A model generated the notes under the pieces. It was not told the DNA's origin and searched no databases. It was given only the letters and a program-made list of their open reading frames with translations. Positions 26,641 through 53,576 of a stretch of DNA of 64,000 bases are shown one piece after another. Positions within the stretch are counted from its first letter, which is position 1; each line of letters begins with the position of its first letter. Source of the DNA: Eledone cirrhosa (Eukaryota); contig OZ024745.1 of the NCBI GenBank assembly GCA_964016885.1, positions 22,382,001 to 22,446,000 of the forward strand, read 5' to 3'. Both the position numbers and the translations under genes were made by a program.

Positions 26641-26838
26641 TATAGTGGTAGAACACTGGAAGGTAATATCCGTAGTGGTAGAGCACTCAGTCCATGGTAC
26701 GAATTAGGTAGAAGTGGTAACACAACAGTTAGTTCAACATAGCGTTCCGTATAACTATTTCCATTACGAGCTGAGGATCCGATAAGGTGAAACAATTGTT
26801 CTCGATATGGTGAACTACCTGTTGTGTAACCACTTCTA
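26641..26838. mobile_element. Fold-back PLE insertion with HHR (26767-26804, +)
   Basis: cgag-CTGAGGA-tccgataaggt-GAAA-caattg-TT-ctcg; same family and termini as 50497-50745. Confidence 0.8.
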
Positions 26839-29800
26839 TTTATATCATTATCTATAAAAGGCAGATTGTTGTTGTGTGTGTGTGTGTGTGTGTGTGTGTG
26901 TGCATGTTCCATGTTTATACATTTGCACAATTTCAAACTGATTCGACTCAAAGTCTGTTTTTGTTGTAAATGACTTAGGTCAACGACTATTTATTTCATT
27001 CAAACTCACCCACAATTACAGAAATAATCGATAAAACTAAATACATGACGCTTTACCCCTCTAATACAATCTGATATCATCTCTCTACTCCCCTTAAAAT
27101 TCGATAAAACTACGTACATGCTGCAACTTTCTCTTATATACGATTAAACTTACAAACTTCCTTTAAGAACGCCGAAGAGAGAGAGAGAAGAGAGTGAGAG
27201 GGAGAGAGAGAGAGAACGTTTGTTTTTGAGTGTGGAACGGTCAAACATTTATTTACTTCAATGACAAAGAGAACTTATTACATTTCATACGAAGCAACAA
27301 TTATTCAAAAGCAACAGATAAATTTATTCAACAACAAAAAAAATAGCGATAAATCTTTTTTTAAACCTCTCAACGAACGTGGAAGAAAGAAGTATCAGTT
27401 TATTTACTATACACAATAATATCCTCTATGAGGTCACTAAACCTGCTAGAAACAGCAGCTAACTGTCCCCCATATCACACCCCTCCCTACTGTCTTAAAT
27501 TTAGAAAACACACATTAGACAACCATGCATAACAACGCCATCGCAGCTCTGTTGTGCAAGTACTGTGAAACAATAAATTTCAACACTTCTTTGCACAGAG
27601 ATAATATCCATAGGCTAAACTACAATTGTCACTACTGGCGCAGCTCCTGCTTCGGCTGTCCAGGTCTGCAATTCATTCACCCAGTGCCTGGCAGACAAAA
27701 AGGTGGTGCCATAAAATGGGTGGTGCAACGTGAAATAAAGTGTGTGTATATATATATATATATATATATATATATATATATATATATATATATGTATGTG
27801 TATATATATATATATATATGTATATGTATATATATGTGTGTATATATATATATATATATATATATATATATATATATATATATATATATATATATATATA
27901 TATATATATATATATAAATATATATATATACATGACTTGATTTTTTATTTCATTTTTTTAACTTATATATATATATATATTTATATATGTTAGACAGTTG
28001 GGGCCCGACGGTTAAGCTCTTGTCGTTCACTCTACAATACCAAATGTCGAGTACACTGCAGAATAATGGTCTTACTAGTTTAAAACTGGTAGGGACTCTG
28101 AAGATAAATTCCGTATAATTTTGTCTATCTGCTCTTCACATTTATAATTATATATTTGTGCCTGTGTGAGTGGGTGTGTATATGTGTGTGTTTGTACGTG
28201 TGTATTTTTATGGGTGTCTAAGTGTGTGTGTACATATGCCACATACATATATAGAGCCAAATATATATATGAGTATGTATGTACGCTTGAATTACTGAGA
28301 AATTATGAAACACTGTTTTTGACACACAAAATGGTAAATAACTCTCTCTCACTCTTTCTCTCTATCTAGGTACCTATATATATTATATTGAAGCTCACAT
28401 ATACACTCAAATACATGCATGTCCATGTGTGTATATATATATATATATATATATGTGTGTGTGTGTGTGTGTGTGTGTATGCTTATATATGCGTATATTA
28501 TATGCGTATATATATATATATATAGACACACACACATACATACACACACACAAACACACACTCACACACATATATATATATATATATATATATATATATA
28601 TATATATATATATATATTCATATATACACATATATACACATATATACATATATACATGATGTAGATCAATAATTAGAAAAAGAAAAGAAAGCAAAGTAAA
28701 GGCAATACTATATGATAGAGAAAGTATGCAAGTGAGTAGATTGATAGATTTTTGTAGGGGTGGGCAACATGGATAGGGATATAGAGATCAATAGATAGAT
28801 AGGAAGGTAGATAGGTGACTACTAAATGGAAACAAAATCAATAAAATCTAGTAACGTGCCAACTATATATTGGTGCAATAAACTGCATATTTCCTCCGCT
28901 ATCGATATATATATATATATATATATATATATATATATATATACAAACATACATAATATCTCTCTCTCTATATATATATATATATATATATATATATATA
29001 TATATATGCATGTATGTATATATAATTACATATATATATTATTCCCTCCGCTATTGATATATGTATATATATACATAGCGGAGGAAATAATAAAATAATA
29101 TATATATGTAATTATATATACATACATACATACATATATATTTATATGTATGAATGTATGTATGTGTGTATGTATGTATGTATGTATGTATATATAATTA
29201 CATATATATAATATTCCCACCGCTATTGATATATATATATATATATATATATATATATATATATATATATATATATATATATGTATATATATATATATAT
29301 ATATATATATATATACACATATATATATGTCTATATATATATATGTTTATGGGTATAAATTCTTGGTTTTTGTAATGCTACATTATATTGTATACATATG
29401 TGTGTTTGTTTTATATTTTTATTGATAATAAAATATCAATATAATGTTTATGTACTTCGTATATTGCTTTATACGCACGGATACAGACAAACGCATACAA
29501 TTGCTTTAGACAGTCATCTATACATACATAATACACGTATATATATATATATGAGTGTATATATATATATATTTGTGTGTGTGTGTGTGTGTGTGTGTCA
29601 GTGAGTGTGTGTGTATAAATGTATATATATATATATATATATGTATGCATATATACATATATACATATATATATATATGCATATATATATGTATATATGT
29701 ACATATCCATATATATATATGTATATATATATATATATATATATATGCATATATACATATATACATATATATATGCATATATATATATGTATATATGTAT

Positions 29801-30991
29801 ATATGCATATATATATATATATATGTATATATATATGTATGCATATATACATACATACATATATATATATATATATATATATATATATATATATATATAT
29901 ATATATATACATAAGTTACGTAGATGTGTACATGCATGCAAATGTATGCATACGTAATTTATAATAAGATATTAAAATTTATATGGTAAATAATATCTGT
30001 CATGTATCCCAAATTTCGACATATTTCTAATTGAAGTTCAGTTTTAAAAGCTACTTTACTTATGGGACACTACGTAATATATATTACATTATTATTTTGT
30101 TATTAACAAACAAATAATCACACAGAAACACACACACACTGTTCCACATTAACACCCTCACACCTAAATAGACACATCAGTGCATATATGAACACATAAA
30201 CACATCAGTGCATATATGAACACATAATCATGCGCACGCACAGACACACACACACACATAATAATGTGTGTGTGTGTGTGTGTGTGTGTGTTGGAAAATG
30301 ATGCATTATGGTATATATCATGTAGAATAAAATCACAACTGTGTAATTTATATCTAATTCATTTCCACACACACTCACACACACATTCACACACACACAT
30401 ACATTCACACTCACACATACACACACAATATATCAATAAAATAAAGTACCAGTAAACCAACTGGAGTCCGTTAATCTACTTTCACCGCCCCCCAAATTGT
30501 TGGCCCTTTGCCTAAAATAGAAACCTTTACTCATGGATTGGCAGTATCGGTAGAGGGTCGGACGCCATGTTTGACGCACAGAGTACACTGGGTATTTGCT
30601 GCCTTGTGCCAAAAGTAGAAACAATTATATTAATACTTATCAACATATATATATGTGTGTGTTTATGTACGTATATAAGTATGTTTTATATTACCTTGTG
30701 CCAATCATTTGTGAAACGTACGTAGCAGATCGATAATCAATGAAAGCATGTAAAGGAAACTTTATCATTTTAACATTTTTTTTTCTTAATATATACACGC
30801 TGGCTGTGCATCGAGTGTTCACAATGGTACGACCACTAGCAAATCACTGAATATACATACATATATAAATATATACATTAAACTGTGTTGTTTATTATAC
30901 ATTAAAGATTTAGCTCTGTTACTTACATAGAGCACTCTTCATTCCTTTTACTCTTTCCACGGAAACTTCGATACTTATATATATATATATA

Positions 30992-31430
30992 TACAATATA
31001 TTAATAAATGGAAACTATATTTATAAAACCATATTTATTTTATTATATATATATTTCAAGGGCAACCAAGGTAAACTATGGTGCGCTTTCATCAGATAAA
31101 ATACAGATTTGTTTTATAAATAAATATTGACATACCCTGAAAAAAGACAACCTCAACGGTTGAAATTCGCTGATTAGTTGGTTGTCTTTTTCCGGGTATG
31201 TCAATATTTATTTATAAAATAAATCTGTATTTTATCTGATGAAAGCGCACCATAATTTACCTTGGCTGCCCTTGAAATATATATAATAAAATAATTATGG
31301 TTTTATAAATATAGTTTCCATTTATTAATATATTGTTTATTTACTCCACTAAACTGTTGAGTGCTTTATATCAGTTATAAAAAATGTTTAAGCTTGTTGA
31401 ATCCCAACAAATTAAATATAAGCTCTGCAT
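30992..31430. mobile_element. Fold-back PLE insertion with two HHRs (31038-31101 minus, 31230-31291 plus)
   Basis: ~340-bp palindrome plus ~95-bp tail; ttttat-CTGATGA-aag...ctt-GAAA-tatata-TA-ataaaa. Confidence 0.85.
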
Positions 31431-52555: not shown

Positions 52556-53160
52556 ATATATATATATATATATATGTATATATATATATATGTATATATA
52601 AGGAGAGGGAGAGAGTGAGAGAGGGAGTGAGAGAGAGAGAGAGAGAGGGAGAGACATACGTTGATAGAAAGAAAGATAGATAGATAGATATTTATATGAC
52701 TATATATGTAAATATGTGTGTTGCATATTATATATAGATATAACACACACACACACAGACTCGCACACACACACATACACACACTCACACATACACACAC
52801 TCACACCCATACACACACACACACACACACACTCACACACATGTATATTCTTTGTATTATTTATATCTCTTTTATTATATTTCTAGTGTTTTCTTTTACT
52901 TTTTCAATTCAGCGTCAAAAATATTGTGATATTAGTATTATTAGTTGTAGTGGTATCTTTACTATTGTTGTTGTTGCTGCTTTTGTTGTTGTGGTGGTGG
53001 TGGTGGTGGTGGTGGTGGCGCTACTAGCGGCCGTAATGGTATTGTTGTAGAATATATGCAGCTTCATATGCAAGTGAGAATAATCTCCTCATTTACACAG
53101 ACGAGAAAACTATATATTCTCGCCTGTCTTCTAGTCCAGCAGTCGGAAGCGGTGGGAGGG

Positions 53161-53204
53161 GCCGTCCTGACGATGGCCAGTTAAGCCTGAAATTCACAGA
53201 CGGT
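53161..53204 (+). ncRNA. Degenerate HHR
   Basis: gccgtc-CTGACGA-tggc cagttaa gcct-GAAA-ttca-CA-gacggt; cleavage-site U replaced. Confidence 0.5.
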
Positions 53205-53385
53205 TGTCGCCCTTGCTTCTGCTGGACATCACCAGTGGGCGTTAGCCCCCCTGTGTTTGCATAGCTACGGCTTCCTAAAACCGTATTTCTTTGGAGATAC
53301 GAAATATTTATATATATATATATATATATATATATATATATATATATATAAATATATATATATATATATATATATATATATATAT

Positions 53386-53576
53386 ATAGATGAGATTCTA
53401 CAGGACTAGAACTGTTTCATTCTTTAGAAATCATCAGGAATCTCTGATGATTTCTAAAGAATGAAACAGTTCTAGTCCTGTAGAATCTCATCTATATTAA
53501 AACTTTTATACTCTGCAATGTATTGAGTACCTTACTTACTGTGGTTACCTCCGATTCAACCCGGAATAACGTACCT
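53386..53576. mobile_element. Fold-back PLE insertion with intact HHR (53393-53443, minus)
   Basis: same family as 49404; palindrome 53386-53495 plus tail. Confidence 0.82.

Follow-up and report, generated by a model that had tools for sequence, protein, structure and literature searches.

How Penelope-like elements (PLEs) insert is poorly understood; accounts of the one-sided tail and of the mirror-image insertions go back years. The one biochemical study to show two internal start sites dealt with a single vertebrate element and, in the text available, did not state what specifies them (PMC11167929). A 64,000-nt stretch of Eledone cirrhosa DNA (contig OZ024745.1, positions 22,382,001 to 22,446,000 of the forward strand; hereafter the window) raises the same question, for a sequence-only reading had picked out the hexamer AGYRCT between the two termini of PLE families that it took to be unrelated, and had suggested that it sets the priming register. 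All 14 sites named there are present at their positions, including the one at 53526, which reads AGTACC and thus lies outside the AGYRCT pattern.

The AGYRCT-type motif is strongly enriched, by position and by strand, near (TA)n junctions. Over the window as a whole it shows no enrichment (44 observed against 44.0 expected from shuffles), a count at chance level that makes plain counting uninformative. To assess position, 600 kb elsewhere in the genome supplied 596 non-simple flanks of (TA)n tracts and the window another 87; read towards the tract, these 683 flanks grouped into 336 blast clusters, and flanks of different clusters do not align with each other. At 30-85 nt before the (TA)n junction, AGTGCT was present in 16 clusters, compared with 2 at a distance of 100-154 nt; its reverse complement gave 7. 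An unbiased ranking of 7-mers by excess placed GAGTGCT first (13 clusters at 30-85 nt, 1 further out and 3 for the reverse complement), and the positional enrichment anticipated by the sequence-only reading was thereby borne out on independent DNA. The reverse-complement control is conservative because the sense strand of family D carries GAGCACU. The motif had been placed 20-30 nt beyond the short terminus, which holds on inspection for families T1, B, C and A in the window, whereas in other families the distance reaches about 54 nt.

The hexamer is the 3' side of a predicted, conserved bulged RNA hairpin in Hydra-like PLEs. This hairpin reads 5'-RCUC, a variable stem, a loop, the returning stem strand, a U-N bulge and GAGY-3', followed by RCY, and the conserved unit (RCUC ... 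U-N-GAGY-RCY) therefore exceeds the hexamer. Its base is invariant, R-CUC pairing with GAG-Y, and the upper stem varies between families yet is paired. The window holds the following copies from families other than B.

46218-46681, arms on both strands: T1 head-to-head insertion, long arm (minus) ending at (TA)n, short arm (plus) ending at 46681
46279-46301: T1 hairpin in the long arm of that insertion (motif at about 46280)
31343-31365, plus strand: T1 hairpin, ACUC-CA-cuaaac-UG-uu-GAGU GCU (motif at 31360)
38892-38914, minus strand: T1-like hairpin, ACUC-CAA-auac-UUG-uu-GAGU GCU (motif at about 38892)
47519-47541, minus strand: T1-like hairpin (motif at about 47519), adjoining a T1-type coding fragment at 47610-47879 (plus)
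50982-51009, minus strand: family C hairpin, ACUC-CAGA-aaacuuc-UUUG-ua-GAGU GCU (motif at 50982)
50538-50560, minus strand: family A hairpin with two stem substitutions in this copy (motif at about 50538)
26682-26704, minus strand: second family A copy, 5' strand degenerate (motif at 26682)
52046-52069, minus strand: family D hairpin, GCUC-UGUA-gcc-UACA-ua-GAGC ACU (motif at 52046; sense strand AGCACU)
6993-7016, plus strand: family D hairpin, GCUC-UGUA-caa-UACA-ua-GAGC ACU (motif at about 7011)
52489-52509, plus strand: family E hairpin remnant, loop deleted (motif at 52504)
53510-53531, plus strand: family F hairpin, ACUC-UGC-aau-GUA-uu-GAGU ACC (motif at 53526)
19723-19751, minus strand: family H hairpin, ACUC-UAAGG-accuac-CCUUA-uu-GAGU GCU (motif at about 19723)
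49953-50008, minus strand: family G, ACUC ... GAGU GCU closing a 46-nt insert (motif at about 49954)

The sites are real, though the family A copies at 26682 and 50538 and the family E copy at 52504 are degenerate. The family A fold, ACUC-GUCC-cau-GGAC-u-GAGU GCU with a 1-nt bulge, is present in 10 of 11 other genome copies (alignment and alifold). For family E, 10 sampled copies give the canonical hairpin ACUC-UACU-acccua-AGUA-uu-GAGU ACU, and the fuller copies at 49590-49615 and 49753-49778 read GAGUACA. Family G fits the hairpin weakly, with 2 upper pairs and a 1-nt bulge.

Pairing of the upper stem is maintained across at least 10 different sequences, among them CAGT/ACTG, TACT/AGTA, TGTA/TACA, TGC/GTA, TGTCTAG/CTAGACA, CGT/ACG, TAAGG/CCTTA, TGCTCT/AGAGCA and TGGTT/AACTA. 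Among 111 basal-stem candidates in 664 kb, 44 combined an upper stem of 3 bp or more and a bulge of exactly 2 nt, against 4.2 when the inner sequence was shuffled, and a 2-nt bulge was the best fit in 42 of 53 cases, compared with 65 of 310 in shuffles. Of the 17 context clusters, 12 reached p<0.05; T1, B and C share one such cluster. Across 36 distinct hairpin sequences, U is the first bulge base in 35, and the stems comprise 256 Watson-Crick and 20 G-U pairs, fitting a fold of the sense strand. The alignment across families was built by a rule of our own making rather than by an independent covariation program. The hairpin descriptor is loose, with 99 matches against 40-68 in shuffled DNA, or 72 against 21-32 when at least 2 upper pairs are required. 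A covariance model from two families recovered other families weakly (E 0.03 to 2.4), and families G, cl19 and cluster 10 fit solely through long inserts or a different pairing. The earlier reader knew of no description of the motif; agreeing with this, no published description of the tail hairpin was found in the literature searched.

Family B is represented in the window by a coding element, the parts of which are as follows.

41524-43989, minus strand: P0001, an 821-aa open frame of the autonomous family B PLE, with reverse transcriptase (RT) and C-terminal GIY-YIG endonuclease (translation, homology)
43978-43998, minus strand: hairpin 2, in the 5' UTR, GCUC-CU-uaac-GG-uu-GAGC then GCU (sequence and parse)
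44005-44100, minus strand: tail, bounded by the short terminus (about 44096-44101) and by the long terminus (44005) (sequence comparison)
44061-44088, minus strand: hairpin 1, ACUC-CAGU-cccacaa-ACUG-ua-GAGU then GCU (sequence and parse)
44147-44193, minus strand: hammerhead-like core CUGAUGA ... GAAA in the upstream pseudo-LTR (pattern scan)
40417-41479, minus strand: downstream 3' region of the same element, its short terminus adjoining (TA)n (sequence comparison)
45183-46129, plus strand: inverted 5'-truncated B arm with hairpin 1 at 46046-46073 (motif at 46068) and its long terminus at (TA)n
5251-5515, arms on both strands: small head-to-head B insertion, short arm 5251-5372 (minus), long arm 5381-5515 (plus), hairpin 5434-5461

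A Pfam search of P0001 returned no domain even at E<=10. The frame is collinear with that of L054, in which RVT_1 and GIY-YIG are supported by Pfam (E 6e-8 over the RT portion, 0.003 over GIY-YIG), and it is through this collinearity that RT followed by GIY-YIG is recognised in its single ORF. At least 114 copies of P0001 occur in the genome at 98-100% amino-acid identity. The interval 40417-46129 contains the downstream 3' region, the ORF, the upstream pseudo-LTR with the tail and the inverted arm; its pseudo-LTRs, inverted 5'-truncated copy and one-sided tail are those of an EN+ Penelope-like element. The pseudo-LTRs carry CUGAUGA ... GAAA cores with flanking complementarity (pattern scan and inspection). 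At 44147-44193 complementarity in helix I was found by inspection, and Rfam hammerhead models gave no match there at the gathering score or at E<=1.

These elements have features of the Hydra clade: P0001 carries the altered linker motif CNCRIKNKCPLNNHC, and insertions are into (TA)n, nearly all of it plain (TA)n in which the target holds no hairpin. Unlike the L054 frame, P0001 has no C..C between the IY and YFG motifs, and the CCHH cysteines are absent on inspection. The Hydra clade, as far as the accessible text of Craig et al. 2021 describes it (PMC8557442), likewise combines a C-terminal GIY-YIG with absence of the two CCHH-motif cysteines, and has (TA)n insertion in common with the elements here, whose hammerhead-like cores would be the counterpart of its hammerhead motif; the likeness is one by features rather than by phylogeny. 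The families of the window are mostly truncated copies of several Hydra-like Penelope lineages; they belong to one PLE group and are not unrelated as had been supposed. Assignment to the non-LTR retrozymes, which are defined by tandem arrays, was rejected, T1 and B occurring as head-to-head pairs or single truncated ends; family E alone shows a two-unit tandem (49500-49861).

Both B and T1 have two discrete 3' end classes, the tail being present in part of the copies. In 30 genome loci, B 3' regions end solely at reference positions 1068-1078 or 1158-1162, with 18 ends in each class, and both classes run into TA-rich repeat, mostly (TA)n. T1 arms have long ends at query positions 197-203 and short ends at 113-120. 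Hairpin 1 lies within the tail, that is, the stretch separating the two classes, and its variants in family B at a share of at least 20% are confined to the loop (44078) and the flanks (44060, 44091 and 44092; contigs, three runs). Alignments of at least 44 nt put short ends 6-9 nt upstream of the hairpin in T1, B, E, cl16, C, D and F, and in window copies the short end lies 4-7 nt ahead of it; the intervening sequence differs among the seven families, and the 6-9 nt spacing recurs. This ruler is inexact: in family F the gap falls into two classes, 6 and 17 nt, in cl14 it is 18 nt, four B copies have their end on the hairpin's first base, and some gaps of 11-18 nt also come from alignments of at least 44 nt, the remaining gaps belonging to 14-21-nt repeat matches or lying far upstream. 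Family E short ends ('...ttcc') fall 8 nt before the hairpin in 5 of 7 rows and 9 and 12 nt before it in the other two, with at most 3 following letters (TAT) in common with the (TA)n target. T/A letters common to element and target leave the exact ends uncertain by 1-5 nt, so microhomology could contribute more than we have allowed for.

The motif had been thought confined between the two termini; a second copy proved to lie beyond the long one. In three coding elements a second hairpin begins 6-9 nt past the long end, within the 5' UTR of the same element, which in coding copies continues past that end. Hairpin 2 of family B begins 7 nt past the long terminus (44005) and about 50 nt upstream of the ATG, with AGCGCT at 43978; that of the T1-type coding element follows the T1 long end by 9 nt in 9 of 19 loci, and that of L036 begins 6-9 nt after the cluster-10 long end. 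L039 has a similar hairpin about 30 nt upstream of the ATG, and in L044 the distance from the expected long end to the second motif is about 75 nt instead of 7. Both hairpins of coding elements are upstream of the ATG, by about 150 and 30-55 nt. Apart from one nearly identical B copy, protein identity among the coding relatives is just 26-58%, and the hairpin is nonetheless kept.

Since copies end a few bases ahead of it, the hairpin likely tells the enzyme where copying starts. We propose, at a probability of about 0.6, that it docks the element's reverse transcriptase and that DNA copying starts a few bases upstream, a role suggested by genomic footprints together with the biochemistry of Poseidon (PMC11167929). 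With purified Poseidon_Ac protein, reverse transcription begins at two adjacent sites inside the RNA that lack homology to the cut DNA; these sites delimit the tail, and RNA lying 3' of them is required (Frangieh et al. 2024, PMC11167929). For the elements here, the template would be an RNA spanning the junction of pseudo-LTR and 5' UTR, thereby holding both hairpins. The enzyme would bind either one, each positioning it at one of two internal start sites, and cDNA would begin just 5' of the bound hairpin from a primer provided by the cut (TA)n target, the exact first base perhaps being fixed by a few shared T/A letters. Such priming would then account for most of the short 'families' in the window, as 5'-truncated products. 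The suggested cis-element setting the priming register may accordingly be kept for the covarying hairpin, with ends a few bases upstream of it and a second hairpin past the long end, but not for the bare hexamer, and nothing pointed to the promoter that had been offered as one possibility.

As described in the available text, Poseidon_Ac resembles these elements in its two end classes flanking a tail and its AT-rich target, and its use of both DNA strands agrees with the head-to-head arms; where it requires an RNA element 3' of the start sites, a conserved hairpin stands here (PMC11167929). It differs in starting inside a stem loop termed AC-rich, 111-118 nt into the ORF, and in its tail of 30-40 bp (PMC11167929), against a bulged CUC/GAG hairpin here that occurs twice upstream of the ORF, with tails of about 67-100 nt (our sums). 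Poseidon belongs to a different clade, and no cross-family motif is named in the text at hand (PMC11167929). The available portion of PMC8557442 describes the tail as a 30-40 bp extension probably arising from EN-mediated resolution, and mentions there no hairpin or motif.

Ends 4-9 nt before the hairpin would suit a cut site as well as a start site. The transcript might be cut, by an activity of the host or of the element, a few bases 5' of each hairpin, with reverse transcription starting at the RNA 3' end and the termini being RNA ends; one putative self-cutting motif is already nearby in these elements. We consider this unlikely, as no second ribozyme-like core was seen around the hairpin and Poseidon initiation, in the account available, is internal, on RNAs extending past the start sites (PMC11167929).

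Alternatively, the GIY-YIG endonuclease could read the motif as DNA, for homing into copies or for resolving intermediates, and its cutting would set the termini. Upper stems that change with pairing kept, and 20 G-U pairs confined to the sense strand, are what a folded single strand would show and a double-stranded site would not, and nearly all targets are plain (TA)n without the hairpin. I-TevI-type enzymes, for their part, cut away from their binding site. The tail of D. virilis Penelope is needed for endonuclease recognition of plasmid DNA, according to the accessible part of Frangieh et al. (PMC11167929), and Craig et al. attribute the tail to EN-mediated resolution (PMC8557442, in the part available); even so, we rate this reading as quite unlikely.

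It is less credible still that the hairpin is an expression signal (5' UTR, promoter-proximal or translational) and its proximity to the ends a by-product of (TA)-like microhomology. Both hairpins do precede the ATG, and many ends have 1-5 T/A letters in common with the target, but the family E short end keeps its distance with so few shared letters, and the spacing recurs in seven families despite differing intervening sequence. That the motif has no function, being residual similarity of related elements or a hexamer picked post hoc, is strongly disfavoured: the chance-level count in the window, the common ancestry of the families and the single context cluster of T1, B and C speak for it, but the coding relatives are highly diverged, flanks of different clusters cannot be aligned, upper stems differ yet are paired, and the motif heads an unbiased ranking.

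The docking hairpin that we favour has parallels in other retroelements. 'Stringent' LINE and R2 reverse transcriptases recognise a 3' stem-loop. As proposed here, the enzyme of the element is recruited by a structured RNA close to the copied end, which truncated or parasitic copies also carry; in LINEs and R2 that structure is copied into the insertion, with priming at or near the RNA 3' end, whereas the hairpin here is 3' of the start and omitted from the copy it would direct. Telomerase RNA has template-boundary and template-adjacent helices, of which the boundary helix, 5' of a short, reused template, stops synthesis. Telomerase has its nearest relatives in the Penelope reverse transcriptases (PMC8557442, in the part available). 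In both cases the start or end of copying would be defined by a helix set a short, fixed distance from the template. The likeness is an analogy only, the hairpin here being 3' of the start of a long template. Non-LTR retrozymes of animals were reportedly described by Cervera and de la Pena in 2020. Like the units here, in which the hammerheads are putative, they are short, non-coding, hammerhead-bearing repeats linked to Penelope-like elements, but they are defined by tandem arrays and circular RNA, and most units here are head-to-head truncated 3' ends. The main text of a retrozyme preprint (10.64898/2026.07.22.740005), to the extent available, does not contain the words hairpin, stem-loop, tail or initiation.

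A bolder version, which we hold as tentative and rather doubtful, is that a dimeric enzyme on the twin hairpins of one RNA cuts both (TA)n strands and starts two cDNAs simultaneously, one before each hairpin. This would explain why each head-to-head insertion has exactly one long and one short arm, and the hairpin might be an anchor akin to the template-defining helices of telomerase RNA that predates the split of the two enzyme lines.

A covarying hairpin, repeated ahead of the gene and lying a few bases from each end class, is a candidate start signal that can be mutated. It would extend the two-start-site picture of Poseidon to a second, very active clade and makes the question directly testable, and for annotators the hairpin may serve as a marker of true element ends.

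The window, whose host genome is 3.0 Gb, is very rich in microsatellites and carries many short repeats abutting (TA)n with hammerhead-like cores (CUGAUGA ... GAAA). Repeat finding on the whole window was dropped because microsatellites swamped the output, and self-blast was used instead. Rfam gave 0 family matches in the window at gathering score, the clearest hammerhead-like copies matched no Rfam hammerhead model at E ≤ 1, and the E-value listings held only microRNA-like and other chance matches on simple repeats and palindromes, with hammerhead absent; the label hammerhead is therefore based solely on the letters of the core and the complementarity of its flanks. 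A hammerhead search by loose regular expression was also dropped, its matches in the sampled DNA being mostly false, and the test was therefore anchored on (TA)n junctions. The window further contains a repeat family, unrelated to the (TA)n elements, with many copies at 83-95% identity, and very long imperfect microsatellite arrays with extreme GC skew; Helitron-type frames were seen at a locus elsewhere in the genome.

761-906 and 12 further places (e.g. 6072-6256, 8526-8697, 12568-12775, 18588-18779, 59250-59468), repeat family of ~150-190 nt
54663-58727, (TGG)n array of ~4 kb
1235-3083, (GTTG)n array of ~1.8 kb
L014:4902-7933, Helitron-type frames with Helitron_like_N and PIF1 helicase domains

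The sequence-only reading had named 14 sites of the AGYRCT type, between the two termini of Penelope-like elements (PLEs), as a cis-element setting the priming register, such as a reverse transcriptase (RT)/endonuclease (EN) binding site, a template-positioning signal or a promoter element, and all 14 were found in the window. The hexamer as such is without enrichment, since 44 occurrences were observed against a shuffle mean of 44.0. Nor are the sites independent, because several fall in the same short repeat family adjoining (TA)n (31360, 38892, 46279 and 47519 in T1; 26682 and 50538 in A; 52046 and 7011 in D). Position and strand were examined on fresh DNA, sixty 10-kb pieces of other chromosomes. 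There and in the window, every flank of a (TA)n tract with 6 or more units was taken and oriented to read into the tract. Flanks whose final 100 nt were 20% or more dinucleotide repeat were excluded, and 596 of 1289 were kept in the genome and 87 of 258 in the window. AGTGCT was concentrated 39-72 nt before the (TA)n junction in the kept flanks, and its reverse complement was evenly spread. When these flanks were grouped by blast into 336 clusters, AGTGCT lay at 30-85 nt in 16 clusters and at 100-154 nt in 2, and its reverse complement lay at 30-85 nt in 7. GAGTGCT showed the largest excess of all 7-mers before (TA)n junctions (13 clusters, versus 1 further out and 3 for the reverse complement). 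Positional enrichment over background is thus present, and the earlier observation stands, broadened and tied to one strand.

Folding of the tails revealed that GAGU pairs with an upstream ACUC across families. A reading of GAGUGCUY as a self-complementary RNA dimer site with G-U pairs was rejected, because the partner strand RCUC upstream and a covarying upper stem appeared. A descriptor (R-CUC, 6-50 nt, GAG-Y, then R-C-Y, with R and Y paired) applied to both strands of 664 kb gave 99 matches versus 40-68 in ten dinucleotide shuffles, and 72 versus 21-32 when at least two upper pairs were required. The sharper test asked whether the inner sequence makes a second stem beside the basal stem, with the inner sequence shuffled as control. 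At least three further pairs with exactly two unpaired 3'-side bases were found in 44 of 111 basal-stem candidates, against 4.2 after shuffling, and the best fit was a 2-nt bulge in 42 of 53 (65 of 310 shuffles). Candidates with at least two such upper pairs numbered 60 in 17 context clusters, with p < 0.05 in 12 of the 17. The upper stems vary by cluster while their pairing is kept (CAGT/ACTG, TACT/AGTA, TGTA/TACA, TGC/GTA, TGTCTAG/CTAGACA, CGT/ACG, TAAGG/CCTTA, TGCTCT/AGAGCA, TGGTT/AACTA and others). MAFFT did not bring the 5' strands of the hairpins into register, and a covariance model built from two families recovered the remaining families weakly; pairs were therefore counted by our own rule.

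The bulge opens with U in 35 of 36 distinct hairpin sequences, the trinucleotide that follows the stem is GCT in 22, ACT in 10, ACC in 3 and GCC in 1, and the stems comprise 256 Watson-Crick and 20 G-U pairs. Because a G-U pair becomes a mismatch on the opposite strand, the folded strand is the sense one, most simply the RNA. These sense-strand G-U pairs, together with the compensatory stems, disfavour the explanation that the hairpin is a double-stranded DNA site for the endonuclease. The partner of the hexamer's Y is the base that opens the 5' strand (A-U in most families; G-C in family D and also in hairpin 2, a second hairpin past the long end), and the R is the first unpaired base 3' of the stem. 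The apparent exception of family A arises from mutation of both window copies; of 11 further copies in the genome, 10 carry the intact form ACUC-GUCC-cau-GGAC-u-GAGU GCU. At 52504 the loop of the family E copy is gone, and the hairpin can be fitted to family G, cluster 19 and cluster 10 only with long inserts or extended pairing. Two family E units stand in a 163-nt tandem including a (TA)n spacer (window 49500-49861), and their hairpins read GAGUACA, which falls outside AGYRCT. We conclude that the motif is genuine and belongs to a conserved hairpin.

Copies end at two classes of terminus, short and long, with hairpin 1 in the tail between them. Short ends were mapped by aligning the last 60 nt of each hairpin-less flank inside a hairpin-bearing flank; three of the four 11-nt rows and matches below ~21 nt were left out as short or simple-repeat matches. 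In alignments of at least 44 nt, the short end preceded the hairpin's first base by 6-9 nt in T1 (3), B (4), E (6) and once each in cluster 16, C, D and F, and gaps of 12-18 nt were seen in F (twice at 17), cluster 14 (18), a B variant (14) and an E copy (12). Each end is ambiguous by 1-5 nt, as T/A letters are often common to element and target. In the window copies the distance was 4-7 nt. A tight ruler from hexamer to terminus was rejected, because the hexamer stands 21-54 nt from the short end and 28-88 nt from the long one; the constant distance runs from the 5' base of the hairpin. Coincidence is disfavoured by the recurrence of the same spacing across families. Short copies of family E end in '...ttcc', with at most three next letters (TAT) attributable to element or target alike, and so few shared letters mean that (TA)n microhomology cannot be the whole story. 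The 3' regions of family B at 30 loci had only two end points, reference 1068-1078 (18) and 1158-1162 (18), and four short ends fell at the first base of the hairpin.

Inverted arms were also recorded. At one locus (L094:1062-1161) an inverted B arm is made up solely of tail (reference 1061-1160) and reads as if cDNA had begun at the long site and halted near the short site. For T1 long arms (L103-L132; window 46218-46681), an inverted partner arm lay less than 400 nt away in 24 of 30. All 24 partners ended at the short terminus and 0 at the long, with a query that contained the tail and thus preselected the long arm, so each head-to-head T1 insertion comprises one long and one short arm.

The coding elements include a second Penelope-like type.

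41524-43989 (-), P0001, 821-aa ORF of the family B element
L052:2933-3811, second Penelope-like type, with Pfam-visible GIY-YIG and C..C in its core
L054:8314-9636, the same second type

P0001 had no Pfam match even at E ≤ 10. It aligns collinearly with the L054 frame, scored by Pfam as RVT_1 and GIY-YIG, and by this alignment it is a Penelope-like RT-endonuclease. It has at least 114 near-identical copies in the genome, and the sampled DNA holds many relatives 26-58% identical plus one almost identical B copy. The Pfam silence on the intact frame is probably due to its Asn/Ile/Lys-rich make-up, and annotation by domains would overlook the whole element group. The second type ends in (TA)n ~130 nt past its stop, and the hammerhead core and the hairpin are absent from those 130 nt.

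Family B is the 3' region of the P0001 element, which on the (-) strand runs through an inverted arm, an upstream pseudo-LTR with hammerhead-like core, the short-end position, hairpin 1, the tail and the long end at 44005, followed by 7 nt, hairpin 2 (GCUC-CU-uaac-GG-uu-GAGC GCU) and the ATG. T1 is the 3' end of a different coding element, for which 19 loci were found with a 63-residue piece (window 47610-47798); in 9 of the 19 the long end '...cttctac' is followed by 9 nt, GCUCC-uuuaau-G-uu-GAGC ACU and the ATG. At L036, GUUC-CC-aaua-GG-uu-GAGC begins 6-9 nt after the cluster-10 long end; a similar hairpin stands ~30 nt before the ATG at L039, and at L044 a second motif ~75 nt beyond the expected long end does not fit the pattern. 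Since B and T1 are 3' ends of coding elements, most families, previously described as unrelated, are 5'-truncated products of several related coding lineages, and with such lineages as source, long-ended copies can arise though themselves without hairpin 2.

The two hairpins lie ~90 nt from each other. The sequence just past hairpin 1 is complementary to that just past hairpin 2 (44026-44058 and 43943-43975 (-)), over 10 bp in B (41 of 1000 shuffles as good) and 11-12 bp in the T1-type element (L134, L138, L144, L152; 9-36 of 1000), and nothing comparable was found at L036 (368 of 1000). A long-range helix may enclose the tail end and hairpin 2. Over 43900-44340, depth in runs X1, X5 and X6 drops ~500-fold on crossing the long terminus towards the 5' UTR, contig depth not being copy number, and contigs of two other organisms also carry the B tail with (TA)n beyond 44005.

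The element fits EN+ PLEs and by its features resembles the Hydra clade (PMC8557442): its EN is C-terminal, the GIY-YIG core lacks C..C, insertion is into (TA)n and a hammerhead-like motif is present. The accessible parts of that paper treat the tail as an extension of 30-40 bp without a known cause and name no motif. The words hairpin, stem-loop, tail and initiation are absent from the main text of a 2026 retrozyme preprint (10.64898/2026.07.22.740005), and a full-text literature search found no paper on such a hairpin.

The hairpin most likely marks the reverse-transcription start sites of Hydra-like Penelope elements, and we give the mechanism a probability of about 0.6. From the observed motif, covarying fold, two end classes and spacing, we infer enzyme binding, initiation inside the RNA and the identity of the template. 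The enzyme would bind either of the two hairpins of an RNA that extends across the junction of pseudo-LTR and 5' UTR, cDNA would start a few bases 5' of the bound hairpin, and the hairpin directing a start would stay out of the resulting copy. Less likely, the same structure would be an RNA cut site or an expression signal, or would reflect mere shared ancestry of the families. For the marking of start sites there is a biochemical parallel in the available text on purified Poseidon_Ac protein (PMC11167929). There, reverse transcription begins at two adjacent internal RNA sites without homology to the AT-rich DNA that is cut, and the tail spans the interval from one start site to the other. RNA lying 3' of these sites is needed, and cutting and extension take place on both strands of the DNA. 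The genomic footprints here agree with that picture in a different clade, and add to it a candidate for what defines each start site.
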